From Acidimicrobiales bacterium (lineage in GTDB: Bacteria > Actinomycetota > Acidimicrobiia > Acidimicrobiales > Aldehydirespiratoraceae), in assembly GCA_965116965.1 (NCBI GenBank), contig OZ220743.1, positions 111,262-175,261 on the forward strand: a stretch of DNA of 64,000 bases, read 5' to 3'. Shown piece after piece: positions 5,166-63,458 of this stretch; within the stretch, counting starts at the first letter, position 1, and every line of letters begins with the position of its first letter. The position numbers were made by a program, and so were the translations under genes. Below the pieces are notes generated by a model, which ran no database searches, was not told the DNA's origin, and worked only from the letters and a program-made list of their open reading frames with translations.

Positions 5166-5885
5166 TCAGGTCGTCTGCTTCCGGAACAGGCTCCGTCGAC
5201 GGGGTCTCGGTTCGCGGCGCCGTCGGAGGGCGAGGAACACTGACCCGCACGGCTCGTGGTCGAAGAACTCGAGCACGCCCTTCTGGGGGTGATCCTTGTC
5301 GACCGTCCAGATCGACTTCTGCTTCCACGCGTCGGCGGAATCACTCGCCTGCTGGCGATGCTCGGGCAGGAACACCAGAGAGACCTCCGTCTGGAAGGTC
5401 TCCGCGCCATCGCCCGGCTCTGGTCGGTAGCCGCCGACCCAGGCTTGGCCGGTGCTGAACACGGGAGCCATGAAGATGACCCACTCGCGGAACAGGCGCT
5501 CCTCGTCAATTGGAATCCCGGCGGCCTCCTCATCCCGCTCTGGGGAGACGACCCAAGTGACCGGGAGGTCCGTGCCTGGGAGCGCGACGCAATGGTGGCC
5601 GTCGTCGGGCGTCGCGAAAGTGTCCGTCTCGTCCAGTGTCGGCGAGAACGTGAAGCCTTCGCTGCATTCGACGGCGGCCATCTCGTTGAGCAGCCTTGTG
5701 ATCGGCACCGGTCCGGCAGGCGTGGGCGGCGGCGCGAGAAGGCCCAGTTCGGCCAGGGCTCTGACGGTTGCTTCTGCAATGTCGTTGGGGAACGCCGCTG
5801 CTTTGGCCTCATCGTCTTGGGCCTGCACGGCCAACTCTTGCGCGACCTCGACGGCGCGACGGCAGTCGCCAGGCACCTGACCCAC
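5166..5885 (-). CDS. hypothetical protein
   Basis: 239-aa ORF with ordinary amino-acid composition, unlike the Arg/Pro-rich antisense frames around it. No family recognised. Confidence 0.5.
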   Translation of the reverse strand: MGQVPGDCRRAVEVAQELAVQAQDDEAKAAAFPNDIAEATVRALAELGLLAPPPTPAGPVPITRLLNEMAAVECSEGFTFSPTLDETDTFATPDDGHHCVALPGTDLPVTWVVSPERDEEAAGIPIDEERLFREWVIFMAPVFSTGQAWVGGYRPEPGDGAETFQTEVSLVFLPEHRQQASDSADAWKQKSIWTVDKDHPQKGVLEFFDHEPCGSVFLALRRRREPRPRRRSLFRKQTT

Positions 5886-6043
5886 CTGTCAGTCGCTCCG
5901 GGTATTGGGCGCGGGGGACTCGCGGCGGGGACGAGGATGCATGTTCTCGCCGGGGTCAGCCAGGAGAGCGATACACGGCGCAGCGCTTGGAGTCGCCCGC
6001 GTGCCGACGACCGAGTGCCGAGACTGACAACGTTGTAGGGGTA

Positions 6044-6547
6044 TCAGCCAGCGGCGGGCTTGACGCGAGCCGGCGCTGTCCGCGGTCGGGGCGCGGCGAG
6101 CGTCTCCTCGGCCTCGGTCTCGGAAACGCCGTTGGCCCCGACGGGATCCGGGCTGAATGTTCCCAGTGACGCTTCGGCAGGAGCGATGGGCTTGGGATTC
6201 AGATTGTCGAGCACTTCACGCAGGCGCTCCTTGCGATCCTCTGGGACAGTGGGGTCGGCAATCAGGTCCTCGATGGCCCGCGCCCTGTACGCCTCGCGCT
6301 GATCGGCGTTGCCCCCGCGAGCCCCCATGAAGTTCTCGCACGCGCGCATGAGTTCGTCGTCCTGATGGCCGGCCGTCCCACCGTCCTCGGCCATCTCCGG
6401 ACGCATGTACGCGGGCATCGTGGGGTCGAGGCGCAGCACCCGCTGGGCGGCGAACCTCACACGGATGTGAGCGAGCCTCAACAACCGGAGCCGCGGATGA
6501 AGAATCATCGGCGGCGGCTCTCCGTAGACATTGCGCAGAAGTCTCAT
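6044..6547 (-). CDS. hypothetical protein
   Basis: The internal ATG at 6547 (MRLLRNVYGEPPP...) starts the protein-like part of ORF 6044..6778. The upstream extension is Arg/Pro-rich junk. No family recognised. Confidence 0.4.
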   Translation of the reverse strand: MRLLRNVYGEPPPMILHPRLRLLRLAHIRVRFAAQRVLRLDPTMPAYMRPEMAEDGGTAGHQDDELMRACENFMGARGGNADQREAYRARAIEDLIADPTVPEDRKERLREVLDNLNPKPIAPAEASLGTFSPDPVGANGVSETEAEETLAAPRPRTAPARVKPAAG

Positions 6548-7578
6548 GAGCGTCTTCTCCTGGTCGGGTTGGGGTCGGGCGTGCGTCCATGGCAAGAAAC
6601 TTGCGGTGGGCGCGGCGGCAGGCGGCTCTCCTGACGGGGCTTCCCCAATGGGACGGTGCCTGCAATTCTGGGTCGGGTGGCAGCCTGATCCACCGCGGCC
6701 ACAACGCGCGGCTGCTCGAGGCTCCGTGTCGAGGCTGCGAGGCGGTAACGGGTGCCAGTGCTCCCTAGTGGGCGGCACGATGGGGTGTTCGGAGAGGCTT
6801 GAAAGAGGTGAGCAGCGGTGTCGAATGGCATCACTGCCGCACGACGCGCTCCTGTGAAGGCTGCATCGGTTGGTCTCCTCTCGCTGGCGGGACGCTGGCG
6901 AACCGCCAACGCCCTGCGCTCCCGAATGCTACGGGAAGGTGCCAGGCTAAATCGTGGATACGTCGACCACAAGTCCGCGGCCGCCAAGCCGCCGGCACCT
7001 CCCGATCGCAAGGCCCCACATGGGCGTGCCCATTCCACACTGATTTCATGGCCGCCAACCGGCAGTCGTGTCGGCGACCGTTCCGGTCGGCCATCCCGCC
7101 TGGGGATGACGGCCCGCCAATCGCGCCACGCGTTTGGGCCTGTGACCTGGGCTCTCGCACCACACAGGCCAAGAAAGCGTTCCAGGATTTCGCGAAATCC
7201 GTTCCAAGTCCCTCCTAACTCAAGCCGCTGACCTCGGCGTTTGAATTTCGCGCATGTCCCACGAGGGCAGCGATTGTGCGGGATTGTGTGCGGGATTGGC
7301 CGCTGACCCGCACGTGGGTGTGCTGAGGGTAGTCGAAGCCGCTGTCGGGGCCTGATCGGCTCTCCAAAGGCGCGTTTGGCGGCGCTCGACGCGTGTTGGG
7401 GCGCGCCGAACTGGCGGTGTCCGCTTGGTGGAGCGAGCTATGCGGCTATGGGGACTGGTTCGTCGCCTGCTGGTAGCCGCTGGATGCGGACGGGTCCGGC
7501 GCGTGGCTGCCGCGGGGTGAGCAGCGGGCCGCTGGCGGCTGCGGTGCGTTCGTCGTAGGCGGTCTTGGCTGCGGTGAG

Positions 7579-20294: not shown

Positions 20295-21734
20295 TTATGG
20301 CGCGTAGGAGAACACGACGTTGCCGACGCTGGCTTCGACGTTCTCCTCGCCGCCGATGTTCTGCACGACGGTGATGCGGGCCGCGCCGCAGTCGCCGAAT
20401 CCGTCGCAGTTGATCGTGCCGATGATGCCGCTGTATCCCTGAACGCTGTTCAGGTGGTCGCGGACGCCCTGGCGGTCGATCATCAGGCTGCCGTCCTCAA
20501 GCCAGGACGCGGCCTTGACGGCATCGAGCAGCAGCGTGGTGGCGTCGTAGCTGTGGGCCCAGAACGGCGCCGCCGGGATCTCGCCGTAGCGCTCCTCGTA
20601 GACGGCCAGGAAGTCGTCGGCGGTCTTGCCGGTGCTCTGGTTGACGTTGGTGCCGAAGCGGGTGTCCGGACCGGACAGGTACATGCCCGCGGTCTGCGGC
20701 AGCGACAGATAGCTGGTGTTCAACAAGCCGTCGGCGGCCATCAGGATCGTGTCCTCCAGCCCCGGAACCCCCGGCGCCTGGTCGGCCACGAAGTCGCCGG
20801 CCGGCTGGAAGATCGGGAAGAACAGCGCAGCCGGGCTGCCTGCGGCGATCTCGGTGAGCGCCGGCACCATGTCGGTGTCCTCCTTGTTGACTGCGGTGAA
20901 GCCCGTGACCGTTCCGCCTTCGGCCTCGAAGGCGTCCGCGAATGCTTGCGCGAGCCCCTGGGTATAGGGGTCGCCGTCATGGATCGCGGCGGCAGCGCCG
21001 ATGCCCAACTCGGAGAACACGAACCTGGCCATGGCCGCGCCCTGGTACAGGTCGTTGTGAGCCGTGCGGTAGTAGCCGACGCTGTAGTTGTTCCCCGGGT
21101 TCCCGACCAGATCAGACGTCAGCGAGGGTGAGGTGTTGCTCGGGGAGATCAGCACCATTCCAGCGTCGGTGATCAGCGGGGCTGCGGCCGTGGCCGCGCC
21201 CGAGCACGACGTGCCGATCACGCCGACCACATCCTCGTCGGCGACGATGGCCTGGGCCGCGGCCTGCCCGCCGTCGGCGGAGCACAGGTCGTCGAGCCCC
21301 GTGCCCAAGTCCACGTCGAAGCCGTGGATCGAGCCGTAGTCCTCAATGGCCAGGGTGCTGGCCCGCTGGTTGGGAAGACCCAGGAAAGCGACGTCGCCGG
21401 AGATCGCCTGAAGCGAACGGATCTGGATCGCGTCACCCGCCTCGACCTCGACGACGCCCAGCGAGCCGTCACCGAGATGCTCCATCATCGCTTCTTCCTC
21501 AGCAGGAGCCTCCTCGTCGGGCTCCGGCGCCTCCTCGTCAGGAGCCTCCTCGTCGGGCTCCGGCGCCTCCTCGTCGGGCGCCTCCTCGGGCTCCGGCGCG
21601 ACCGGCTCTGCGGGCGCGGCAGGAGCGTCGTCGTCGACATCGTCGTCGCTGCAAGCCGCGGCAATGAGCGATAGCGACGCCAACACTCCAAGAGCGGCCA
21701 GCAGACGCCCGAATTTGCTGCGTCGTGGGTTCAT
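20295..21734 (-). CDS. ABC transporter substrate-binding lipoprotein, LivJ/type-I periplasmic binding protein family
   Basis: The internal ATG at 21734 gives MNPRRSKFGRLLAALGVLASLSLIAAACSDDD (signal peptide plus lipobox). An acidic EEAPDEEAPEPD repeat linker follows, then a Leu/Ile/Val-binding-like domain (VIGTSCSGAATAAAPLITDAGMVLISPSNTSP). Confidence 0.85.
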   Translation of the reverse strand: MNPRRSKFGRLLAALGVLASLSLIAAACSDDDVDDDAPAAPAEPVAPEPEEAPDEEAPEPDEEAPDEEAPEPDEEAPAEEEAMMEHLGDGSLGVVEVEAGDAIQIRSLQAISGDVAFLGLPNQRASTLAIEDYGSIHGFDVDLGTGLDDLCSADGGQAAAQAIVADEDVVGVIGTSCSGAATAAAPLITDAGMVLISPSNTSPSLTSDLVGNPGNNYSVGYYRTAHNDLYQGAAMARFVFSELGIGAAAAIHDGDPYTQGLAQAFADAFEAEGGTVTGFTAVNKEDTDMVPALTEIAAGSPAALFFPIFQPAGDFVADQAPGVPGLEDTILMAADGLLNTSYLSLPQTAGMYLSGPDTRFGTNVNQSTGKTADDFLAVYEERYGEIPAAPFWAHSYDATTLLLDAVKAASWLEDGSLMIDRQGVRDHLNSVQGYSGIIGTINCDGFGDCGAARITVVQNIGGEENVEASVGNVVFSYAP

Positions 21735-32481: not shown

Positions 32482-32576
32482 AGGTCTGGCCGATCCCGGT
32501 GCCGCGCATCGTACCCCGGTCGAGAGTCGCAGACAGGACCGGCGAGCCCCCCAACCCGGAGGCCGAGCGGGCAGGC

Positions 32577-32815
32577 GCGCGAGTCGGGGCCCAAGCGGGC
32601 GAGGCCGTGGCCCGAGCAGCCCTCAGGTCGCGGGACGCGCGAGTCGGGGCCCAAGCGGGCGAGGCCGTACGGGCGAGCGGCCCTCAGGTCGCGGGACGCG
32701 CGAGTCGGGGCCCAAGCGGGCGAGGCCGTGGCCCGAGCAGCCCTCAGGTCGCGGGACGCGCGAGTCGGGGCCCAAGCGGGCGAGGCCGTACGGGCGAGCG
32801 GCCCTCAGGTCGCAG
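32577..32815 (+). repeat. tandem array, 4 units of 60/61 bp (two alternating variants), related to the dispersed intergenic element
   Basis: gcgcgagtcggggcccaagcgggcgaggccgtggcccgagcagccctcaggtcgcgggac alternates with a ...gtacgggcgagcggcc... variant. Unit starts are at 32577, 32637, 32698 and 32758. The last unit ends ...cgcagcgaacgagatcgggag, as in the single-copy elements. Confidence 0.9.
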
Positions 32816-36165: not shown

Positions 36166-37389
36166 CTAGCGGGCGGAGGCTGACAGCAATTCGTAGGCGT
36201 TGTCCCGCATCACCTTGCGGACCTCGTCGTCGCTGAAGCCGGCGATGTCGTCCAGGTAGGAGGCCGGCTCGGCCAGACCCTCGGCGTGGGGGTAGTCCGA
36301 GCCGAACAGCATCCGGTCGGCCCCGATGCAGTCCTTGATGAGGGCCATGTCGTCCTCGAAGTAGGGCGACACCCACACGTTCTCGATGAAGACCTCCACC
36401 GGGTGGCGCTTGAACTCCCACGGCATCTTGCCGTGGCAGATCTTGAGGTTGCGCAACAGGTCGGGGACCCACATGGCCCCGTTCTCGATGGTGGCCAGGC
36501 GCAGATCGGGGAAGCGGTCGAGCACGCCGTGGCAGATCAGGGCCGCGAACGTGTCGGAGATCGAGCGGTCCGAGAAGGCCACCAGCGGGAAGGCCATGTG
36601 CTTGAACGCCTCGAACTGGCCCCGGGACGGCTCCCACACCTTGCCGTACTGGACGGTGCCGTTGAGGCCGGCGTGCATGGCCAGCGGCACCCCGGCCTCC
36701 TCCAGCCGGGCCCAGATCGGGTCGTAGTCGGCCATGCCCGGCGACTGGTAGCCGCTTCCGGTGGGCACCGGGCCGGGAACGGTGCACACGATGCGGGCGC
36801 CCATCCCCAGCAGCCGCTCCAGCTCGACCACCGCCAGCTCCGGGTCGGCGAAGGTGAGCATGGGCACAGCGAAGATGCGGCCGTCGCGGTCGAAGCCCCA
36901 GTCCTCGTCGAGCCAGTTGTTGAACGCGCTGAAGGCGGCGTGCAGGGCTGCAATGTCACGCTTGAGGGCCTCCTGCATGCCCACGCCCTGGGTGGGGAAC
37001 AGCAGCACCGACTCCAAACCCTGGCTGTCCATCAGCTCGACGCGGGCGTCGCGGTCGCGGAAGCCGGGGTGGTCCTCTAGGGGATCGAGGTCGCCGAACA
37101 TGGCCGCGATGTCGCGCCCCTCCAGGTTGCGGCCCCGGAAGTAATCCTCGAGGCTGCCCGGCTTGGCGATCGGGTCGAAGGTCGGGTTGGGGATGAACTT
37201 GTTGACCTTGCCGGCCACCATGAAGCGCTTTCGACCGTCGATCTCCGCCCACTGCATGCAGCGCTTCTTCATGGACGGGTCGATGTGGCGAATGAAGGCG
37301 TCGGGCGCCTCGTAGTAGTGCTCGTCCACATCGAACGCCCGGAATCCCAGTGCGGCTTGGGTCGTCATTGCTTCGAGGCTACCGGCCAC
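36166..37389 (-). CDS. amidohydrolase-2 family protein
   Basis: FDVDEHYYEAPDAF..., LLFPTQG..., FGSDYPHAEG. It is a paralog of 61628..62806. The start may be ATG 37368. Confidence 0.8.
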   Translation of the reverse strand: MAGSLEAMTTQAALGFRAFDVDEHYYEAPDAFIRHIDPSMKKRCMQWAEIDGRKRFMVAGKVNKFIPNPTFDPIAKPGSLEDYFRGRNLEGRDIAAMFGDLDPLEDHPGFRDRDARVELMDSQGLESVLLFPTQGVGMQEALKRDIAALHAAFSAFNNWLDEDWGFDRDGRIFAVPMLTFADPELAVVELERLLGMGARIVCTVPGPVPTGSGYQSPGMADYDPIWARLEEAGVPLAMHAGLNGTVQYGKVWEPSRGQFEAFKHMAFPLVAFSDRSISDTFAALICHGVLDRFPDLRLATIENGAMWVPDLLRNLKICHGKMPWEFKRHPVEVFIENVWVSPYFEDDMALIKDCIGADRMLFGSDYPHAEGLAEPASYLDDIAGFSDDEVRKVMRDNAYELLSASAR

Positions 37390-37481
37390 CCTGCCCAGCG
37401 AATCCCAGCATAACCAGCATTATCAGTTTTTTTTTGTGATTATTGTTATATTTCAATATGCACTCTGCTAACTTGCCTGTC

Positions 37482-37841
37482 ATGGACCCGGCGATAACCG
37501 CCACCGTCATCGGCGTGCTGCTAACCGTCGCCTTCGGCGCCTTCGCTACCGCGTTCGCCTGGTTCAGGTCCGACGTGATCGCTCGCTTGGACAAGATGGA
37601 TGAGAAGTCAGACAGCCGGTTCGAGAAGATCGACGGCAGGTTCGAGAAGATCGACGGCAGGTTCGAAGAGATCGACGGCAGGTTCGAAGAGATCGACGGC
37701 AGGTTCGAGAAGATCGACGCCCGGTTCGAGAAGATCGACGCCCGGTTCGACCGGCTGGAGACGACCGTTCAGACCCTGATTGTGACGCTCGCCCAGAGAG
37801 GGCATTTGACGGACCCAGACGACTCGGGGCCCGAAGACTGA
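37482..37841 (+). CDS. small membrane-anchored coiled-coil protein with six and a half 21-bp (heptad) repeats
   Basis: MDPAITATVIGVLLTVAFGAFATAFAWFRSDV (one TM helix), then RFEKIDG x2, RFEEIDG x2, RFEKIDA x2, RFDRLET, and a C-terminal LAQRGHLTDP. It lies behind a roughly 90-bp AT-rich tract. TAACTT sits 7 nt upstream of the ATG, and I saw no Shine-Dalgarno. Confidence 0.65.
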   Translation: MDPAITATVIGVLLTVAFGAFATAFAWFRSDVIARLDKMDEKSDSRFEKIDGRFEKIDGRFEEIDGRFEEIDGRFEKIDARFEKIDARFDRLETTVQTLIVTLAQRGHLTDPDDSGPED

Positions 37842-37848
37842 AGTAGAT

Positions 37849-38025
37849 GTGATCCTTGCCGCCATCGTCATCGGCGGGCTGTACCCGGCCTCACTCGCTG
37901 CCTTCATCATTCAGTTCGTCCGGCTGCGGTCTGACATGCACGCGGGTTTCGACAGGCTCGAGACCCGCTTCGACGAACTGTTCGACCGGCTGGAGAGTCA
38001 GGTGCCGATGACTGACTCTCCGTAA
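37849..38025 (+). CDS. small membrane-anchored coiled-coil protein (58 aa, GTG start; below the ORF-track cutoff)
   Basis: My own translation: VILAAIVIGGLYPASLAAFIIQFVRLRSDMHAGFDRLETRFDELFDRLESQVPMTDSP. It has the same TM, LRSD and RLE layout as the neighbouring paralog. The 3' end overlaps the convergent LLM gene. Confidence 0.4.
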   Translation: MILAAIVIGGLYPASLAAFIIQFVRLRSDMHAGFDRLETRFDELFDRLESQVPMTDSP

Positions 38026-38909
38026 TGCTGGAGGGCCTCTAGGGAGCGGTTCAGGGAGTCGGCGGGGATGGGGGCCGCGCACCAGGTGACGCCTAGCTCG
38101 GCCAACTCCTGCAGGGCCTCCGAGTGGGCGTCGGGATTGAAGTCGTCGGCGACGGGGCTACCGCCGGCCAAGGTCATGAACGAGACGTCGATCTCTGCGG
38201 GGTCGCGACCGGCTGACTCGGCTTGACGCCATAGGTCGTCCAGCATCGCTCTCAAGTCGTCGAGTGTCTCCAGCGGGACCGTTCGGGCGGTGGTGGCCAG
38301 CCGTCGGGGGGCGGGGAACGGGACCCAACCGTCGGCGACGGTCGCGACACGCCGGCGGCTGAGGCGGCTGTTGCCTCCGATCCAGATCGGGATCGGCCGC
38401 TCCGGCTTGGGGTTGGCGGTCTGGCCCCGGGCCGTGAAGTTGCGGCCCTCGTAACTGAAGTCGTCGGTGGTCCACACGCCCCGCACGACCTCGATGGCCT
38501 CGTCGAACAGGTCGTTGCGCTCTTCGAAGTCCACTCCGAGGGCCCGGTACTCGCCCTTGAGGTAGCCGGTGCCCACGGCCAGCACGAACCGGCCGTCGGA
38601 CATAGCGTCGATGGTGGCCGCCGACTTAGCCACCAGGAACGGGTTGCGGTAGGGCAGCACCACCACGTTGGGGATCAACTGCACGCGCTCCGTGACCGCG
38701 GCCGTGAAGGCCAGCGCCGCGAAGGGATCGAGCGCGTCGTGGCCGCCGGCCGCCATCCAGCGGTGAGTCGGGGCGGGATGATCGGTGAAGCCAATCCCGT
38801 CGAAGCCGGCCTCCTCGGCCGCCCGGGCGAACTCCACGAGCCCTTGGCGCGTCGCGAACTCGGGGCTGCAGCGGCCCGCGGCCAGCGGGTACGTCACCGA
38901 GAACTTCAC
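37998..38909 (-). CDS. LLM-class F420-dependent oxidoreductase
   Basis: MKFSVTYPL..., FDGIGFTDHP, VVLPYRNPFLVAKSAATIDAMSDGRFVLAVGTGY and PIWIGGNS are luciferase-like monooxygenase family blocks. It uses a GTG start. Confidence 0.85.
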   Translation of the reverse strand: MKFSVTYPLAAGRCSPEFATRQGLVEFARAAEEAGFDGIGFTDHPAPTHRWMAAGGHDALDPFAALAFTAAVTERVQLIPNVVVLPYRNPFLVAKSAATIDAMSDGRFVLAVGTGYLKGEYRALGVDFEERNDLFDEAIEVVRGVWTTDDFSYEGRNFTARGQTANPKPERPIPIWIGGNSRLSRRRVATVADGWVPFPAPRRLATTARTVPLETLDDLRAMLDDLWRQAESAGRDPAEIDVSFMTLAGGSPVADDFNPDAHSEALQELAELGVTWCAAPIPADSLNRSLEALQHYGESVIGT

Positions 38910-39234
38910 GAACGAACCCTCCCGGCTGCCAACGCGAACCCGGCGATAGGCAAGAGCGCCACCGAGAACTTCACGAACGAACCCTCCCAGCTGCCAACGC
39001 GAACCCGGCGATAGGCAAGAGCGCCACCGAGAACTTCACGAACGAACCCTCCCAGCTGCCAACGCGAACCCGGCGATAGGCAAGAGCGCCACCGAGAACT
39101 TCACGAACGAACCCTCCCAGCTGCCAACGCGAACCCGGCGATAGGCAAGAGCGCCACCGAGAACGTCACGAACGAACTCTCCCAGCTCCCAGCTCGAACG
39201 CAACGGCAGGCACGAGCATCACCGAGAACTTCAC
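38906..39234 (-). repeat. tandem array of five 65-bp units, each a 22-codon mini-cistron (relay between the FGGY kinase stop and the LLM start)
   Basis: Unit starts (GTG) are at 39234, 39169, 39104, 39039 and 38974. Each reads GTG AAG/ACG TTC TCG GTG ... GGG AGG GTT CGT TCG TGA (MKFSVALLPIAGFALAAGRVRS). Each TGA overlaps the next GTG, and the final TGA overlaps the LLM GTG at 38909. Confidence 0.9.
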
Positions 39235-40785: not shown

Positions 40786-41691
40786 ATGAGTTCGCCGATT
40801 TGGGATCCGCACGGGCCAAGCCTCGTAGTGCTGAGGGACAATCTCCCCATACTCGCCGAACTCCCGGACGAGTCAATCACGTTGGTGTACATCGACCCTC
40901 CGTTCAACACCGGCCGTCGGCAGTCGAGGCAGACGCTGCGAACCACCAGAAGCGAGAAAGGCGATCGCGTCGGGTTCAAGGGTGCAACCTACAAGACAGT
41001 GAAGGGCTCGCTGTCGGCATATGACGACGCCTTCGGTGACTACTGGTCGTTCTTGGAGCCCAGGCTGGAGCAGGCATGGCGACTGCTGACAGACGATGGC
41101 ACGCTGTACCTGCACCTCGACTACCGCGAAGTCCACTACGCCAAGGTCGTGCTTGACTCACTGTTTGGCCGGGAGTGTTTCCTGAACGAGATTATTTGGG
41201 CCTACGACTACGGTGCTCGGGCGCGAAGCCGCTGGCCAGCCAAGCACGACAACATCCTCGTCTACGTGAAGAACCCCGACGCCTACCACTTCGACAACGC
41301 CACCGTCGACCGCGAGCCCTACATGGCTCCGGGCCTAGTAACACCCGAGAAGGCGGCCAAAGGCAAGTTGCCCACCGATGTCTGGTGGCACACCATCGTG
41401 TCGCCGACAGGCAAAGAGAAGACCGGCTATCCAACTCAGAAACCCGAGGGCATCCTCCGCCGTATCGTGCAAGCCAGCAGCCGACAGGGCGACTGGGTGC
41501 TCGACTTCTTCGCTGGCAGTGGCACGGCTGGTGCTGTCGCGGCTCAACTCGACCGTCGCTTCATAATGGTCGACAACAACCCAGAGGCCTACGAAGTGAT
41601 GCAAAGGCGCCTCGGGAACGGAGGGTTGCTAACATCGATCAAGTATCTGGACCTAAGCACCGACCAGCCCGCGGAGCAGACGGTTGCCTGA
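40786..41691 (+). CDS. type II DNA methyltransferase, beta-class amino-methyltransferase (N6-A or N4-C)
   Basis: Motif IV LVYIDPPFNTG near the N-terminus. TGYPTQKPEGILRRIV and AdoMet motif I VLDFFAGSGTAGAVA near the C-terminus. Confidence 0.85.
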   Translation: MSSPIWDPHGPSLVVLRDNLPILAELPDESITLVYIDPPFNTGRRQSRQTLRTTRSEKGDRVGFKGATYKTVKGSLSAYDDAFGDYWSFLEPRLEQAWRLLTDDGTLYLHLDYREVHYAKVVLDSLFGRECFLNEIIWAYDYGARARSRWPAKHDNILVYVKNPDAYHFDNATVDREPYMAPGLVTPEKAAKGKLPTDVWWHTIVSPTGKEKTGYPTQKPEGILRRIVQASSRQGDWVLDFFAGSGTAGAVAAQLDRRFIMVDNNPEAYEVMQRRLGNGGLLTSIKYLDLSTDQPAEQTVA

Positions 41692-48797: not shown

Positions 48798-49231
48798 CGG
48801 GCGTCACCGCCCAACCGCTCGGCCTCTGCAGGACGGAACAGCGGAACGTGCCACTCGCCGCTCTCCTCGAACAGCACCTCGACCCGCATCCCGATCTCGA
48901 CCTCGTCGATGTCGCAGTCCACGATGTTGGTGCCGATCCGCACCGTCGGATCCTCGTCGAGTTCGACGAGCGCGAAGACATAGGGCGGCGTGAACCCCGG
49001 GATCCACTCCTTGCGATTGATCGTGTACGTGGCCACGGTGCCGGTTCCGGCCACCGGCTCGGGGCCGACCCGGCGCGAGTGGCAGAAGGGGCAGGCCGGG
49101 CCGGGCGGGTGGACCCAGCGGGAGCATTCGCCGCAACGCTGGATCCTGAGCCGGCCGTCGGCCCCGGAACGCCAGTAGAACTCGCTCTCGGGCGAGGCCA
49201 GCACGAACCGGGGCGGGTTGTCCGCGCTCAT
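48794..49231 (-). CDS. Zn-ribbon/OB-fold protein (DUF35), thiolase partner
   Basis: Rubredoxin-like CGECSRWVHPPGPACPFC followed by an OB-fold region. It lies immediately downstream of an SCP-x-type thiolase. Confidence 0.85.
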   Translation of the reverse strand: MSADNPPRFVLASPESEFYWRSGADGRLRIQRCGECSRWVHPPGPACPFCHSRRVGPEPVAGTGTVATYTINRKEWIPGFTPPYVFALVELDEDPTVRIGTNIVDCDIDEVEIGMRVEVLFEESGEWHVPLFRPAEAERLGGDAR

Positions 49232-49511
49232 GACGGTCCCCTGGTCAGCCGGTTGTCCGCGCTCACGACAGGCACCGAGTCAGCCGGTTGTCCGCGCTCA
49301 TGACGGTCCCCTGGTCAGCCGGTTGTCGGCGCTCACGACAGGCACCGAGTCAGCCGGTTGTCCGCGCTCATGACGGTCCCCTGGTCAGCCGGTTGTCGGC
49401 GCTCACGACAGGCACCGAGTCAGCCGGTTGTCCGCGCTCATGACGGTCCCCTGGTCAGCCGGTTGTCGGCGCTCACGACAGGCACCGAGTCAGCCGGTTG
49501 TCGGCGCTCAT
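49228..49511 (-). repeat. tandem array of eight 35-bp units (four 70-bp double units), each a 12-codon mini-cistron (relay between the thiolase stop and the DUF35 start)
   Basis: Starts at 49511, 49476, 49441, 49406, 49371, 49336, 49301 and 49266 alternate ATG and GTG. ATG AGC GCS GAC AAC CGG CTG ACT CGG TGC CTG TCG TGA encodes MSADNRLTRCLS, and GTG AGC GCC GAC AAC CGG CTG ACC AGG GGA CCG TCA TGA encodes SADNRLTRGPS. Every stop overlaps the next start, and the last overlaps the DUF35 ATG at 49231. Confidence 0.9.
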
Positions 49512-50686
49512 GACGGTCCCCTGGTCAGCAGCAGGCATCCGGTCTCGGGGCCGCCGCCGGCTCCGACCGCGACCACCTCGCAGCCGGGGACCTGGACGTT
49601 GGCTGTGCCCCGCAACTGCATCACTGCCTCGTGAAGGTGGCCGAAGCCGTGCAGCCGGCCCGCGGAGAGCTGGCCGCCGGACGTGTTGAGCGGCGCCGGG
49701 CCGTCGGGGCCGATGTTGGCGCCGCCCTCCACGAAGGCCCCGCTCTCCCCCTTGCCGCAGAAGCCCATGGCCTCGATCCAGGCCAGGGTCAACCAGCTGA
49801 AGCCGTCGTACAGCTGAGCGGTGTCCACGTCGTCGACCGTCAGCTCGGTGCGCTCCCACATCGAGGCGGCGGTGTGGCGCATCATCATCGACGTCAGGTC
49901 GTCGAACTGGTCCCAGGAGGGCCGGCCCCGGATGGCGGTCCCCATGGCGTTGACGCCGACCGCGCCCGCCGGGGCGTCGGGTGAGTGGTCGCGGTGCGAG
50001 ACCACCACCGCGGTGGACCCGTCGCAGGGAACATCACAGTCGTAGAGGCACAGCGGGTCGCTGATCATCCGCACGGCCAGGTAGTCGTCGATGGTCATGG
50101 GATCGGTGTAGACGGCCTGGGGGTTGGCCGCCGCGTTGGCCCGCCCGTTGATCGCAATGGCGCCGAGCTGCGTGCGGGTGGTGCCGTAGTCGTGCATGTG
50201 GCGGCGGGCGTAGCAGGCGACCCAGCAGGCGGCCGACGCCGCTCCGTAGGGGATCATGAACTGGAACGGACCGGCCGAGCCGGCCATCGGGCCGCCCCCA
50301 CCGCCGCCGCCGGGGCGCAACGGCCCTCCGCTGCCCTCCACCACGGTGCGGAACACCAGCACGTGGCGAGCCAGGCCGGTCGCCACCGCCAGGATGGCGT
50401 TGTGGACCGCGCCCAGCGGGCCGGCAGTCTCCACGCCCGAGCTGCGCCAGTTGAGCGCCAACCGCAGCGCCTCGTGCAGTTCAGCCCCCATGGCCCCTCC
50501 GAAGGAGCCGCCGAAGCCCGGATAGGTGGACACCCCGTCGATGTCGGCCGTCGTCAGCCCGGCGTCGGCGACCGCCCGGAGTGCGGCCTCGACGGTGAGG
50601 TCGATGCCGGTGCGGTACAGCCGGCGGCCGATCTCAGACTGGGCCGCGCCGCTGATAACGGCCCGCCGCTCCCGAGGCTCACCCAT
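49508..50686 (-). CDS. thiolase-like lipid-transfer (SCP-x-type) protein
   Basis: 392 aa with a thiolase-superfamily fold pattern (VISGAAQSEIGR..., GVSTYPG..., CDVPCDGSTAVVV, GGQLSAGRLHGFGHLHEAVMQLRG). It is paired with a DUF35 gene. Confidence 0.8.
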   Translation of the reverse strand: MGEPRERRAVISGAAQSEIGRRLYRTGIDLTVEAALRAVADAGLTTADIDGVSTYPGFGGSFGGAMGAELHEALRLALNWRSSGVETAGPLGAVHNAILAVATGLARHVLVFRTVVEGSGGPLRPGGGGGGGPMAGSAGPFQFMIPYGAASAACWVACYARRHMHDYGTTRTQLGAIAINGRANAAANPQAVYTDPMTIDDYLAVRMISDPLCLYDCDVPCDGSTAVVVSHRDHSPDAPAGAVGVNAMGTAIRGRPSWDQFDDLTSMMMRHTAASMWERTELTVDDVDTAQLYDGFSWLTLAWIEAMGFCGKGESGAFVEGGANIGPDGPAPLNTSGGQLSAGRLHGFGHLHEAVMQLRGTANVQVPGCEVVAVGAGGGPETGCLLLTRGPS

Positions 50687-57495: not shown

Positions 57496-58617
57496 ATGGA
57501 GTTCGAGTTCACCGACGACCAGTTGGAGCTCCAACGAGCGGTGCGCGACGTACTAGACGCCGAGGCGCCGCCCGAGCTGGCCCGGGCGGTGGCCGACGGC
57601 CAGTCCGACGCCGCCGACCTCTGGCAGACGCTGGCGAGCCTGGAATGGCCCGCCATGGCGCTGCCGACCGATGCCGGCGGCCTCGGCTACGGCTGGGTGG
57701 AGCTGGCCATCGTGCTGGAGGAGCTGGGCCGCCACGCCGCGCCGGGTCCGTTCGTGGCCACCGTCACCCAGTTCGCCTCGCTGGTGGCCGAAGCCGCCGC
57801 GCCCTCCCAGGCCACTGAGCTGCTGGCGCCGGTGGCCGCGGGCCGAACCACCGGCACCATCGCGGTCGACGAGGGCGCCGGAACCTGGGATCCGGCAGAG
57901 GTGAGCGCCACCGCTCGCCGCGACGGCGACGATCTGGTGCTGTCAGGCACGAAGCAATATGTGCTCGACGGAGCCACCGCCGATGAGATCGCGGTCGCGG
58001 TCCGGATCGACGGCGAGTTGCGGGTGGTCACCGTGCCGGGCTCGTCGGTCCAAGCCACCGGCGGCATCCCCGTGGATCCCGGCGTCCGCCACGCCACCGT
58101 CACCCTCGACGGGGTGCGCGTGCCCGCCGAGAGACTGCTCGGCGACGGCGACGCCGCCGATGCGGTCCGCCGGGCGCTGGAGGAGTCGGTGACCGCGGTC
58201 GCCGCGGTCACGCTGGGCGCCTGCCAGCGGATCTTCGACATCATCAACGGCTACGCCAAGGAGCGCATCCAGTTCGGCGTGCCCATCGGCTCGTTCCAGG
58301 CCGTGAAGCACAAGCTGGCCGACATGTACCGCGACATCGAACGGGCCCGGGTGCTCGTCTACTACGCGGCCCTGACCCTGGCCGAGGACCACCCGGACCG
58401 GACGCTGGCCGCCTCGATGGCCAAGGCGGCTACGGGCGAGGCCCAACGCCGTTGCGTGCAGGACGGACTCCAGCTCGCGGGCGGGATCGGCTACACCTGG
58501 GAGCACGACCTGCACCTGTTCCTGCGCCGGGCCAAGGTGGGCGAGCTCCACTTCGGCTCGGCCTCCCACCACCGCCGGAGAGTCGCCCGCCTAGCCCTCC
58601 AATCCCAGCCCGCCTAG
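57496..58617 (+). CDS. acyl-CoA dehydrogenase family protein
   Basis: MEFEFTDDQLELQRAVRDVL..., ERIQFGVPIGSFQAVKHKLADM and GGIGYTWEHDLHLFLRRAK. Confidence 0.85.
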   Translation: MEFEFTDDQLELQRAVRDVLDAEAPPELARAVADGQSDAADLWQTLASLEWPAMALPTDAGGLGYGWVELAIVLEELGRHAAPGPFVATVTQFASLVAEAAAPSQATELLAPVAAGRTTGTIAVDEGAGTWDPAEVSATARRDGDDLVLSGTKQYVLDGATADEIAVAVRIDGELRVVTVPGSSVQATGGIPVDPGVRHATVTLDGVRVPAERLLGDGDAADAVRRALEESVTAVAAVTLGACQRIFDIINGYAKERIQFGVPIGSFQAVKHKLADMYRDIERARVLVYYAALTLAEDHPDRTLAASMAKAATGEAQRRCVQDGLQLAGGIGYTWEHDLHLFLRRAKVGELHFGSASHHRRRVARLALQSQPA

Positions 58618-58817
58618 GCCGGCGCCGAGTCCGCCGGCGGCTCCGGCATCTGAGGGTCGGTCAGATAGCCAGACCCGGCCAACGCCAGAACCAGATTGTC
58701 CAGCTTGCCTTCCACTCGACGGATGTCGGAGCGAAGCAGATGGAACGCCCCCGTCAGCACGCCAACGAGTGCGCTCCCCAGCACGCCGATGAGAGTCGCG
58801 GCGATCGCTGGATCCAC
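58614..58817 (-). CDS. small membrane-anchored coiled-coil protein (67 aa)
   Basis: VDPAIAATLIGVLGSALVGVLTGAFHLLRSDIRRVEGKLDNLVLALAGSGYLTDP. GTG start with AGGAA upstream. Paralog of 58827..59081 and 37482..37841. Confidence 0.6.
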   Translation of the reverse strand: MDPAIAATLIGVLGSALVGVLTGAFHLLRSDIRRVEGKLDNLVLALAGSGYLTDPQMPEPPADSAPA

Positions 58818-58826
58818 GACGCGTTC

Positions 58827-59081
58827 CTAACCCTGCGGCTCGGCAGGCGGCTGCGGCGGCTGGGGTTGGGCAGGGAATCCGGCTTGTGCCATCGCCCAGA
58901 TCAGCCCGTCCAGCTTCCCCTCGAGCCGGTCGATCCTCCGGTTGGTTTCGCGATGGTCGGCGCGGTTCTCGGCGCGCAACTCCTTGAGATCGGAGCGAAG
59001 TAGATGAAACGCGCCAGTTAGCACGCCGATGAGCCCAGTGCCCAAGACGCCGATGAGCGTTGCTGCGATGGCGGGGTCCAT
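58827..59081 (-). CDS. small membrane-anchored coiled-coil protein (84 aa)
   Basis: MDPAIAATLIGVLGTGLIGVLTGAFHLLRSDLKELRAENRADHRETNRRIDRLEGKLDGLIWAMAQAGF with a Pro/Gln-rich tail. It appears to be leaderless. Confidence 0.65.
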   Translation of the reverse strand: MDPAIAATLIGVLGTGLIGVLTGAFHLLRSDLKELRAENRADHRETNRRIDRLEGKLDGLIWAMAQAGFPAQPQPPQPPAEPQG

Positions 59082-61627: not shown

Positions 61628-62806
61628 TCAGACCGCCAGCAGCTCCTTCAGGTTCCCGCCCATGATCTTGGCGGTATCGGCCCGCGGCAGCGACAGCGGC
61701 AGGTCGTCGTAGAAGCTCACCGGATCGCCCAGGCCCTCGGGGTGGGGGTAGTCGGAGCCGAACAGGATCCGGTCGGGGCTCATGACGTCGATCAGCCCCT
61801 CCAGCCCGTCCTCCCAGAAGGGATTGACGTAGACGTTGCGCCGGAACGCCTCGAGGGGATGCTCACCGAAGTCCTGAGGCAGCTTCTTGTAGACGCCCTC
61901 GAGCTTCTCCAGAAGGGGCCTCACCCAGGTGCCGCCGTTCTCGATGGTGGCGATGCGCAGGTCGGGGAACCGGGTGAAGGCCCCGTGGCAGATCATCGCG
62001 GTCATCATGTCGCTGACGGCCCGGTTCTGCATCACCAGCAGGCGCAGAGGGTTGGGCTTGAACGGCAGGAACTCGGTCTTGCCCTCCCAGATCGAGGCCA
62101 GGTCGGCGTAGCCCGAGTCCGACGCGTGCATGCCCACCAGCACCCCGGCCTCCTGCACCCGGGCCCAGAACGGATCGAACTCGGGCAGGCCCGGCGAGCG
62201 CGGCCCCCGCAGGCCCCAGGCCGGGGCGGGACGGATCAGGATGCAGCGGGCGCCCTTGTCCAGGCACCAGTCCAGTTCCTCGATGGCCTTCTCCACGATG
62301 GGCAGGGTGATGATGGGGGTGGCGAAGATCCGGTCGCGGTAGTTGAACGTCCACTCGTCGTAGATCCACTCGTTGAATGAATGGACGACCACGTGGGTCA
62401 GGTCGGGATCGTCGCGCATGCGCTCCTCGAGCAGGCTGGCCAGCGTCGGGAACATGAGCGAGCCCTGGATGCCGAGTTCGTCGAGATGGGGCAGCCGGGC
62501 CTCGGCGTTGCGGGCCCAGTCGGGACAGCGGATGGGCTCGCCGAAGATCTCCCGCAGCGACTTTCCCTCGGGGTTGCCGTGCCGGTAGTACTCCTCCTGA
62601 GCGCCGGGAGGGGCCACCACCTCGAAGGTCGGGTTGGGTATGTAATCCGATATCAGGCCCTTGATGGCGATCTTGGTGCGGCCGTCGACCTGCACGTAGC
62701 GGATGGCGCCCTTGTAGTCGGCGGGGAGATGCCGGGTGAAGGCGTCCTCCGTCTCGTACATGTGGTTGTCGGAGTCGTATACCGGAAAGCCGAGGTCGCG
62801 AGCCAT
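61628..62806 (-). CDS. amidohydrolase-2 family protein
   Basis: ATG 62806 is preceded by GAAGGAGGG. MARDLGFPVYDSDNHMYE..., LFGSDYPHPEG. Paralog of 36166..37389. Confidence 0.8.
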   Translation of the reverse strand: MARDLGFPVYDSDNHMYETEDAFTRHLPADYKGAIRYVQVDGRTKIAIKGLISDYIPNPTFEVVAPPGAQEEYYRHGNPEGKSLREIFGEPIRCPDWARNAEARLPHLDELGIQGSLMFPTLASLLEERMRDDPDLTHVVVHSFNEWIYDEWTFNYRDRIFATPIITLPIVEKAIEELDWCLDKGARCILIRPAPAWGLRGPRSPGLPEFDPFWARVQEAGVLVGMHASDSGYADLASIWEGKTEFLPFKPNPLRLLVMQNRAVSDMMTAMICHGAFTRFPDLRIATIENGGTWVRPLLEKLEGVYKKLPQDFGEHPLEAFRRNVYVNPFWEDGLEGLIDVMSPDRILFGSDYPHPEGLGDPVSFYDDLPLSLPRADTAKIMGGNLKELLAV

Positions 62807-62924
62807 GACGGTCCCTCCTTCACGGACGCCGATAGATCTCCAACCATATCCGTGCTCGGTCCTGGTCGGCATGAGCGTGCGCTGGATCTGCTGGCCATAT
62901 CAGGTTATTTGATGCTTTTTAGTG

Positions 62925-62954
62925 TTGCATCATTGCGCTGCGGCCTTCTATAGT
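62925..62954 (+). promoter_or_regulatory. sigma-70-like promoter positioned for a leaderless transcript of the small-protein gene
   Basis: TTGCAT (62925), 18 nt, TATAGT (62949), 6 nt (gacgct), then GTG 62961. A T-rich tract lies upstream. The layout and part of the sequence are shared with the promoter at 59088-59116. Confidence 0.5.
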
Positions 62955-62960
62955 GACGCT

Positions 62961-63458
62961 GTGGACGCGATCACGCTCACGGACCTCTTGGCAGTCGTAG
63001 CCGCTGTCCTCGGCCCGACGCTGGCCGCCGTCTTGGCTTTGGCCCGTTACCAGCACAAGGACAGCATCGAGACCCACCGATTGATCGCAGAGGCCAGAGA
63101 CGAGTTCCGCACCGGGATCGCAGAGGCCAGAGACGAGTTCCGCACCGGGATCGCAGAGGCCAGAGACGAGTTCCGCACCGGGATCGCAGAGGCCAGAGAC
63201 GAGTTCCGCACCGGGATCGCAGAGGCCAGAGACGAAACCCGCCAACTGTTCGACAAGGCCGTCGACGAAACCCGCAACCTGTTCGGAGAGGCCAGGGACG
63301 AGAACCGCGAGCACCGCCGCGAGAACGGTGAGATCCTCAAGGAAGTGATCCGGAGCCTCGCCGACGCCCGCGAGAGGCTGGCGCGCATCGAGGGACACTT
63401 CGGCATCGGGGGGAGTCCGAGAGACGAGGATGGTCGAGGCACGGCTGACGCCGCCTGA
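62961..63458 (+). CDS. membrane-anchored coiled-coil protein with four and a half 33-bp (11-residue) repeats
   Basis: The GTG start gives VDAITLTDLLAVVAAVLGPTLAAVLALA (TM), then IAEARDEFRTG x4, IAEARDETRQLF..., and RERLARIEGHFGIGG. The start was chosen by analogy with the MDPAI... N-termini of the paralogs and by the promoter spacing. Confidence 0.55.
   Translation: MDAITLTDLLAVVAAVLGPTLAAVLALARYQHKDSIETHRLIAEARDEFRTGIAEARDEFRTGIAEARDEFRTGIAEARDEFRTGIAEARDETRQLFDKAVDETRNLFGEARDENREHRRENGEILKEVIRSLADARERLARIEGHFGIGGSPRDEDGRGTADAA

Follow-up and report, generated by a model that had tools for sequence, protein, structure and literature searches.

What are the small genes that lie behind an AT-rich tract in a 64,000-nucleotide stretch of DNA from an Acidimicrobiales bacterium (contig OZ220743.1; the window, below), and why does one of them carry a 21-bp tandem repeat that is read in frame? 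An earlier note, made from the letters of the window, had described two tandem paralogs at this place (locus 1; here P1 and P2) and had joined them in one five-protein family with proteins at 58.6-59.1 kb (locus 2; P3 and P4) and at 62.96-63.46 kb (P5). We found that P1-P4 are real genes under purifying selection, and that they make up a small, previously undescribed protein family of a known general kind. P5 was found to be in a separate family with different conserved termini. On balance, we lean towards the view that P1-P4 form a parallel, probably trimeric, membrane-anchored rod that holds a C-terminal module at a distance set by the repeats. The features of the two loci are listed below.

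37400-37481, no strand: AT-rich intergenic tract, with P1 on one side and the divergent amidohydrolase gene (36166-37389, minus strand) on the other; it holds a run of nine T (T9) and the P1 promoter.
37482-37841, plus strand: P1, 119 amino acids (aa); ATG at 37482, stop ending at 37841; match to the family hidden Markov model (HMM) at E=6e-33.
37617-37763, plus strand: in-frame 21-bp tandem array of P1, defined by a unit table, a mismatch matrix and Tandem Repeats Finder (TRF).
37849-38025, plus strand: P2, 58 aa; GTG at 37849, 7 nt past the P1 stop; family HMM match at E=2.9e-15.
58827-59081, minus strand: P3, 84 aa, first gene of locus 2; ATG start; family HMM match.
58614-58817, minus strand: P4, 67 aa, a minimal member with no repeats, 9 nt past the P3 stop; family HMM match.

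At locus 1, the earlier note was correct about the AT-rich tract with its T9 run, about a transmembrane (TM) protein whose heptads are encoded by 21-bp units, and about a GTG-started paralog of 58 codons 7 nt downstream. The GC content is 0.39 at 37400-37499 compared with about 0.65-0.70 in the surroundings, and the T9 run occupies 37427-37435 inside the tract. The corresponding tract of comparison loci L001 and L003 is also AT-rich and can be aligned to that of the window. P1 begins with a TM helix (about residues 4-27), followed by FRSD (28-31), the repeat stalk, the C-terminal module RFDRLETTVQTLIVTLAQRGHLTDP and an acidic tail. In its array, six 21-bp units (37617-37742) are nearly identical, differing from one another at 0-4 positions; they translate as RFEKIDG twice, RFEEIDG twice and RFEKIDA twice, and are followed by a seventh, diverged unit, RFDRLET (37743-37763). 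TRF gave a period of 21, 7.1 copies and 92% matches. Other open reading frames cross the array, for example at 37600-37779 (plus strand) and 37608-37910 (minus strand), and it is the repeat alone that keeps them open.

P2 contains the TM helix, LRSD and three FD(R/E)L units, and lacks the C-terminal LIxALAxxG module. An exact match to the protein is present in NCBI/ENA, and the 3' end of the gene overlaps the convergent LLM oxidoreductase gene by 28 nt. P2 is confirmed as a gene because longer orthologs are found at the same position in L001 (100 aa) and L003 (84 aa). The L001 ortholog has the same C-terminus (...FDRLESQVPMTDSP) and likewise lacks the LIxALAxxG part; the L003 ortholog has the full module. 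In L021 the P2 ortholog is frameshifted, and it is absent in L025-L029.

BLASTP aligned P1 with P3 (E=5e-10) and P2 with P3 (E=1e-3), which, with the family HMM, identifies P3 and P4 as true paralogs of P1 and P2. Thus, the proposed kinship with the proteins at 58.6-59.1 kb stands. The P4-type length is constant, at 67 aa in nine genomes. Depending on the genome, locus 2 carries one to three tandem family genes (L002, L006, L007, L012, L014, L015, L016, at about 5750-6800). Together with the frameshifted or absent P2 at locus 1, this means that gene number varies besides repeat number.

The family is small. The P1-P4 profile retrieved 366 proteins at E<=0.01 from 5.8 billion clusters, and an exhaustive HMM search of 1.84 billion representatives gave 80 clusters at E<=1e-3, 20 of them at E<=1e-10. 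None of the 366 homologs is functionally named by its source; the few recorded names read 'hypothetical protein', and a precomputed Pfam domain is present in 3 of 120 among the matches listed. A peptide scan for AF(H/A)(L/W)LRSD in 185,579 reference genomes found 26 loci, all in Acidimicrobiia metagenome-assembled genomes (Ca. Aldehydirespirator, Acidimicrobiales and Acidimicrobiaceae); the scan covers this pattern only, and divergent members elsewhere would escape it. Marine and sponge-associated Acidimicrobiia were the only organisms in which we found clear members. UBA11606 (Aldehydirespiratoraceae) has both sponge-symbiotic and free-living members (PMC11706023).

Nearly all of the 26 loci are orthologous to locus 1 or locus 2 of the window. 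The gene order at locus 1 is amidohydrolase, family gene or genes, LLM oxidoreductase, FGGY kinase; at locus 2 it is CoA-transferase, P450, one to three family genes and a convergent acyl-CoA dehydrogenase. The flanking enzymes at orthologous loci are 79-98% identical to those of the window. In indel-free ortholog sets, the ratio of nonsynonymous to synonymous substitution rates (dN/dS, Nei-Gojobori) was about 0.2 overall, and in the TM segment it was 0.04 for the P4 type, 0.08 for the P3 type and 0.23 for the P1 type. Two mid-distance relatives, P0136 and P0140, lie in another conserved block (L035 6001-7924; L037-L039 6001-7067), which consists of a thiolase, the family gene, a 110-aa protein with two TM helices and a convergent crgA (cell division). 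The 110-aa neighbour carries a C-terminal CxxC...HC motif that resembles a zinc ribbon. As this block is one extra syntenic context only, no functional link can be claimed. Other distant members lie on short contigs whose context is uninformative.

Conservation within the family is concentrated at the two ends of the protein. We aligned 167 unique sequences at their N-termini. Positions 1-3 are M-D-P. Positions 7, 11, 15, 19 and 23 (A, G, S/T/A, G and G/T/S) are small in about 100% of the 167, which gives a small-xxx-small TM face over five helical turns in a row. F25 hardly varies, and L28-R29-S30-D31 are essentially invariant, with R29 present in 167 of 167. LRSD lies at the membrane exit and is followed by 0-8 repeat units of 7 or 11 residues. 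After this variable region comes the conserved module R(I/F)(D/E)RLE(G/A)K(L/V)DxLIxALAxxG(F/H/Y)LxDP, and then a Pro-rich or acidic tail of 10-20 residues; distant members (P0136, P0139, P0142) have P/S/T-rich tails of up to about 70 aa. The TM face, LRSD and the C-terminal module are shared by all full-length members. Of the motifs that the earlier note had listed as common to all five proteins, P1, P3 and P4 have the whole set, P2 lacks L.LA..G.LTDP, and P5 has neither that module nor (L/F)RSD.

That a single TM helix at the N-terminus leads into a coiled-coil region had been proposed, and AlphaFold models built from family alignments agree with this. P3 is predicted as a single helix over residues 3-67 (mean predicted local distance difference test, pLDDT, 89) and P1 as a single helix over residues 3-105 (mean pLDDT 76). 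The tails are modelled as non-helical, with confidence falling towards the C-terminus.

At codon 22, next to the small-residue TM face, P3 (ACT) and P4 (ACG) both have Thr, and all relatives examined have Ala (GCN). Comparison of the sequences identifies A22T as a parallel substitution in P3 and P4 in this genome only. Gene conversion was rejected as its source, as the codons and the flanking synonymous sites differ. This parallel change hints that the TM helices of P3 and P4 may pack together.

Two further features of the sequences bear on how the proteins would be arranged. The coiled-coil motif R-hxxhE, Arg(g)-h(a)-x-x-h(d)-Glu(e), is stated to direct the formation of parallel three-stranded coiled coils (PMC3653964, PMC6173795) and is credited to Kammerer et al. 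2005 as cited in PMC3653964. A strict form, R[ILVM]xx[LIV]E, is matched by 127 of the 172 unique members, compared with 3.6 expected from shuffles. P3 has RIDRLE; P1 and P2 have RFDRLE, in which Phe at 'a' is outside the strict set; and the motif is absent from P4. The second feature is charge. The N-terminal side of the TM helix has 0 Lys and Arg, compared with 4.06 in the 15 residues on the C-terminal side. The positive-inside rule links such a bias to an N-out/C-in orientation. Therefore, an N-out/C-in topology is predicted.

The length of the region between the conserved ends varies greatly. Locus-1 orthologs range from 66 aa, with no repeats (L025, L027-L029), to the 119 aa of the window P1, the longest seen; the syntenic orthologs of P1 elsewhere have 66-113 aa. 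P3-type proteins have 73-131 aa. The spacer from LRSD to KxDxL equals 6+7a+11b residues in 165 of 175 unique sequences, where only 33 of the 63 integers in the range can be represented in this way. The exceptions fall in a +4, +15, +26 series. Thus, length changes come in heptads and hendecads. Steps of 7 and of 11 residues both keep the register of a coiled coil, and variation by heptads and hendecads only, between conserved ends, is as expected of a rigid coiled-coil spacer. The DNA repeats had been suggested to reflect variability in copy number. This is borne out by the spread of lengths among syntenic orthologs and by recent in-frame arrays that differ from genome to genome, as follows.

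Window P1: 21 bp, 6-7 copies, 92% matches (TRF).
L018: 21 bp, 3.2 copies, 100%.
L012: 33 bp, 3.6 copies, 94%.
L001: 33 bp, 3.0 copies, 95%.
L001: 66 bp, 1.9 copies, 95%.
L001: 12 bp, 2.5 copies, 100%.

All of these unit sizes are multiples of 3, and the arrays are in frame. By their sequences, the expansions are recent and independent in several genomes.

How are these genes expressed? The putative promoters are listed below.

37446-37451, plus strand: -35-like hexamer of P1, TTATAT (TTGTAT or TTGCAT in relatives), 17 nt from the -10 hexamer.
37469-37474, plus strand: -10 hexamer of P1, TAACTT, 7 nt ahead of the ATG.
59116-59111 and 59093-59088, minus strand: P3 promoter, TTGCAC and TAATGT with 17 nt between them, then 6 nt to the ATG.
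62949-62954, plus strand: P5 promoter, TATAGT, 6 nt ahead of the GTG at 62961.

The promoters were recognized through comparative conservation, with the upstream regions anchored on the start codon. Among 30 unique regions upstream of first genes, 28 have a TANNNT hexamer that ends 6-7 nt before the start, and in the other two the distance is 8 nt. TTG is found 16-19 nt (mostly 17) upstream of the hexamer in 26 of 28 first-gene regions; the window P1 has TTA. The same geometry is present upstream of the distant relative P0140. This conservation identifies the AT-rich tract as the promoter of P1. An RNA element in the tract was considered and rejected, as scans of the locus for Rfam families (E<=1) and tRNAs found none. 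A Shine-Dalgarno-like motif precedes 0 of 30 first genes and 10 of 21 downstream paralogs, and the TANNNT hexamer precedes 0 of 21 downstream paralogs. Leaderless genes are generally known in actinobacteria. Because the -10 hexamer lies 6-7 nt from the start and no Shine-Dalgarno motif is present, we infer that transcription of the first gene at each locus yields a leaderless mRNA, which starts at or next to the start codon. These 30 aligned examples from an uncultivated actinobacterial lineage may aid the annotation of gene starts there.

The downstream paralogs begin 1-12 nt past the preceding stop, often behind a TAGGAG-like motif that overlaps it, and would be translationally coupled. P4 is preceded by a TAGGAA Shine-Dalgarno sequence overlapping the P3 stop. 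At this junction (58817-58830) and its equivalents in L004-L019, the upstream paralog ends in ...PQG codons and a stop (cagGGTTAGGAgc), which appear to form the Shine-Dalgarno sequence of the next paralog. Protein tail and translation signal would thus overlap.

The earlier note was unable to place the family, and our searches agree. Scans against Pfam and NCBIfam with the window proteins, ten distant members and 62 family members gave coiled-coil matches only, all below the curated cut-offs. The most recurrent weak Pfam match was DUF7310 (PF23991), with 22.8 bits for P1 and 33.7-34.9 for the best distant members (cut-off 40); it was found at E<=0.1 in 9 of the 62 members. CCDC90-like/DUF1640 (PF07798) reached 26.5 bits in P0160 (cut-off 33.5) and E<=0.1 in 1 of the 62, and is a precomputed or weak match for a few members. 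PADLOC returned weak coiled-coil matches for P1 (DruC, 18.6 bits; JetC, 13.2 bits) and for P5, and none for P2-P4. The best PHROG match was phrog_6701 (E=1e-10); the top matches belong to families of unknown function and involve the repeat or coiled-coil region only. The family profile found nothing significant in the PDB, and a Foldseek search of the PDB with the P3 model gave 0 matches, as expected for a lone helix. The suggested likeness to YtxH, DUF948 or XhlA proteins was not upheld. YtxH (PF12732) and DUF948 (PF06103) had no match at E<=1 for the window proteins or at E<=0.1 for the 62 members. XhlA (PF10779) had no match at E<=1 for P1-P5, and the list of 25 families for the 62 members does not contain it; it scored 21.9 bits (cut-off 34.7) in one distant member, P0163.

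Based on these data, we have proposed a model for P1-P4. The proteins would be expressed as small bitopic proteins of the cytoplasmic membrane; the charge bias suggests that the N-terminus, 3 residues long, would face outward and that the rod would extend into the cytoplasm. Their TM helices would bundle through the conserved small-residue face. The cytosolic helix would carry on in a parallel coiled coil, for which the R-hxxhE motif makes a trimer most likely; for P1-type proteins, where each 'a' position is a Phe, the order could be higher. Neighbouring paralogs, one long and one short, may assemble together, as the A22T change in P3 and P4 hints. The rod would act as a spacer or tether that presents the C-terminal module to a partner at a distance set by the number of repeats. 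Each heptad would add about 1 nm and each 11-mer about 1.6 nm, with about 20 to about 80 helical residues in all past the membrane. This distance would change when the in-frame DNA repeats undergo slippage or unequal recombination, and selection would keep only the steps of 7 or 11 residues that preserve the register. The natural length variants make the spacer hypothesis directly testable.

The nearest designs, in functional terms, are Braun's lipoprotein (Lpp), a trimeric coiled-coil tether of the envelope, and the peripheral stalks of the ATP synthase subunit b type. Membership in either is excluded by the features tested: a lipobox and a terminal Lys are absent, the HMM scores are not significant, and the operon context is missing. 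In subunit b, the N-terminus is short and external, and one TM helix leads into a long cytoplasmic helix with an 11-residue period; the C-terminal end binds a partner, and the tether region tolerates changes in length. The likeness is one of architecture. P1-P4 are much smaller and lack an ATP-synthase operon context. P5 has many weak matches to subunit b, b', AhaH, FliH and YscL, but these are far below the cut-offs (for example, 15.5 versus 131 bits) and are found for P5 only, not for P1-P4.

Several observations weigh against the model. The repeat units of P1 (RFEKID), like P4, fail the strict trimer motif, R-hxxhE is also found in some dimers (PMC3653964), and the AlphaFold models of P1 and P3 are monomers, with the oligomeric state taken from the motif. 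The positive-inside rule is the single basis for the topology, and the Pro/Ser/Thr-rich tails of up to about 70 aa in distant members would also suit an extracytoplasmic, wall-spanning site. A search for partners by genomic context was uninformative: the neighbours are catabolic enzymes with no evident link, and the single syntenic block near crgA is the only further context besides the two core loci. A promoter and terminator scan with the E. coli consensus did not call the plus-strand promoters. Finally, there are other arrays in the genome, and the P1 array could in part reflect general repeat instability and not selection for length.

It is also conceivable, although we hold it to be doubtful, that the proteins face the other way. 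With the N-terminus inside and the C-terminus outside, they would be extracytoplasmic spacers or surface stalks that reach into the cell wall, like a membrane-anchored counterpart of Lpp, and the number of repeats would tune the spacing of the envelope or vary a surface structure met by phages or the sponge host. Lpp is small, N-terminally membrane-anchored and nearly all one helix, and it has a heptad coiled coil with a trimer signature. Its length sets the width of the periplasm. It is also the best PDB match of the family profile (E=0.24, 14.6 bits, non-significant; 'MRSDVQAA..RANQRLD' against 'LRSDLKEL..RETNRRID'). Wall-spanning segments are typically rich in Pro or in P/S/T, as the tails here are; surface proteins typically vary rapidly in length; and the lineage includes sponge symbionts. 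However, Lpp has a lipid anchor, attached through a lipobox Cys after cleavage of its signal peptide, and a peptidoglycan-linked Lys at its end, whereas the P1-P4 family has a true TM helix. Its sequences start with MDPAI..., with no positive n-region, signal peptide or Cys at the expected position, and they end in G, A, D, P or S, not in Lys. Lpp is not known to show natural repeat-number polymorphism. Moreover, the M-D-P N-terminus with 0 Lys and Arg, compared with four after the TM helix, favours a cytoplasmic C-terminus, as in the rod model.

A role in the membrane itself is quite improbable. Here the TM face would form a pore or perturb the membrane as in a holin, toxin or channel, the charged C-terminal helix would regulate it, and tandem long and short paralogs would be effector and inhibitor. 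Small-residue faces are common in homo-oligomeric channel-forming helices, and the five-turn face of this family is highly conserved. The tiny size, the tandem paralogs, the strong autonomous promoter and weak PHROG matches to 'hol-like' and holin families point the same way. XhlA and the haloarchaeal DUF7310 proteins resemble P1-P4 in being short, with one TM helix and heptads of the R(L/I)(D/E)xLE type. In XhlA the coiled coil is N-terminal, the TM helix is C-terminal and the gene is part of a prophage lysis cassette; in P1-P4 the TM helix is N-terminal, and the genes are flanked by amidohydrolase, LLM oxidoreductase, P450 and acyl-CoA dehydrogenase genes. Against such a role, we found no endolysin, spanin or prophage context for the family, so that membership among phage holins was rejected, and PADLOC gave no system match. 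Moreover, toxin cassettes are not typically inherited vertically and stably at two syntenic loci, nor do they typically have a conserved C-terminal module. In tblastn searches against phages P3 had no match, and P1 matched through its repeats only, to tail-anchored DUF1640-like hypothetical proteins outside lysis cassettes. A phage origin was rejected on these grounds. Two of the phage proteins, from Xylella phage Xfas53 (QIQ62515.1; L033 2845-3357) and Streptococcus phage IPP34 (orf73; L034 2342-2821), contain QRFEKID/GFEKID heptads and a C-terminal TM helix, and their genes lie near replication or lysogeny genes, not lysis genes. DUF1640/CCDC90-like proteins such as QIQ62515.1 resemble P1-P4 in having QRFEKID/RFDRLE heptads next to a single TM helix, but their order is opposite: from the N-terminus, the soluble domain comes first, the coiled coil second and the TM helix last.

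The repeats might instead be amphipathic segments that lie on the membrane surface and stabilize it under stress, as in YtxH, LEA or apolipoprotein-like proteins, with no rod at all; we judge this to be very improbable. YtxH and DUF948 proteins share the N-terminal TM helix followed by helical repeats, an 11-residue periodicity is seen in P3-type members, in P5 and in some P1-type proteins, and P5 and distant members give weak Apolipoprotein-domain matches (19-23 bits). These matches are far under the 90-bit cut-off, and YtxH and DUF948, which the searches did not match, have no counterpart of LRSD or of the C-terminal module. The repeats are dispensable: the minimal members of 66-67 aa have none, yet they are the most conserved. 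In addition, the units have only two hydrophobic positions and carry the R-hxxhE coiled-coil signature. We give virtually no probability to spurious open reading frames or an artefact of a repeat-prone genome. The genome does contain several other near-perfect arrays, the repeat keeps other frames open, and the sources give no functional name. The comparative data refute this explanation: dN/dS is low, particularly in the TM segment, homologs are numerous, synteny and promoter geometry are conserved, the arrays are all in frame and the lengths are quantized.

It is possible to go beyond the rod model and regard P1-P4 as a new class of genetically length-tunable molecular rulers, in which the in-frame 21- and 33-bp repeats act as contingency-like loci and change, by register-preserving steps of 1-1.6 nm, how far from the membrane an anchored trimeric rod presents its conserved tip. 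We consider this bolder version rather improbable. If such rulers faced outward, they would tune envelope architecture or the interaction with host or phages in sponge-associated Acidimicrobiia. If the ruler idea is true, these genomes would contain, in the P5-type proteins, a second system of this design that evolved independently. Alternatively, P1-P4 may be ordinary structural accessories. Small membrane proteins are poorly annotated, and here is a well-defined, conserved family to which the sources attach no function.

P5 differs from P1-P4 in sequence, despite its similar layout.

62961-63458, plus strand: P5, 165 aa; true start GTG at 62961, at which the annotated protein P0211 also begins.

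P5 has an N-terminal TM helix, 11-residue repeats and a conserved SLADARERLARIEGH module, and its gene contains four perfect 33-bp units (63084-63215). Homology with P1-P4 was rejected, as BLASTP gave no alignment, the family HMM did not match, and hhalign gave a probability of 3.7% over 8 columns. On this evidence P5 is an architectural analogue and not a demonstrated paralog. Its own family has 58 matches of 100-181 aa with variable 11-residue repeats; the N-terminal ...AAVLGPML...MRYQHxDSxKTR is conserved and the C-terminal SLADARERLARIEGH is invariant. This family is equally unannotated. A few metagenomic proteins (P0154, P0163 and P0168) join an N-terminus like that of P1 to a GERLARIEAHL end like that of P5, so that a very distant or modular link between P5 and P1-P4 is conceivable. 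Like P1, P5 is divergent from an Amidohydro_2 gene (61628-62872; 36166-37389 for P1), and its promoter shares the putative leaderless geometry of the P1-P4 first genes.

The genome of the window seems generally prone to tandem duplication. A 65-bp array (5.2 copies, 94% matches; 38895-39234) fills the gap between the stop of the FGGY kinase and the start of the LLM oxidoreductase. In the corresponding intergenic region, L001 has one such 65-bp unit, bounded by a 15-bp direct repeat, CACCGAGAACTTCAC, which includes the reverse complement of the LLM start (GTGAAGTTCTCGGTG). As the repeat contains the LLM start, the 5' end of the LLM gene and the region upstream of it are present about five times in the window. 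Other near-perfect tandem arrays are found at 32576-32813 (60/121 bp, 3.9/2.0 copies), at 49216-49529 (35/70 bp, 9/4.5 copies, 99-100% at the long period) and at 21496-21599 (36 bp, 3 copies). The gene content beyond locus 1 also differs between genomes. In the window, L021 and L025, the FGGY kinase gene is followed by a DNA methyltransferase gene (40786-41691 in the window); in L001 and L003 a 2-hydroxyacid dehydrogenase gene takes its place.

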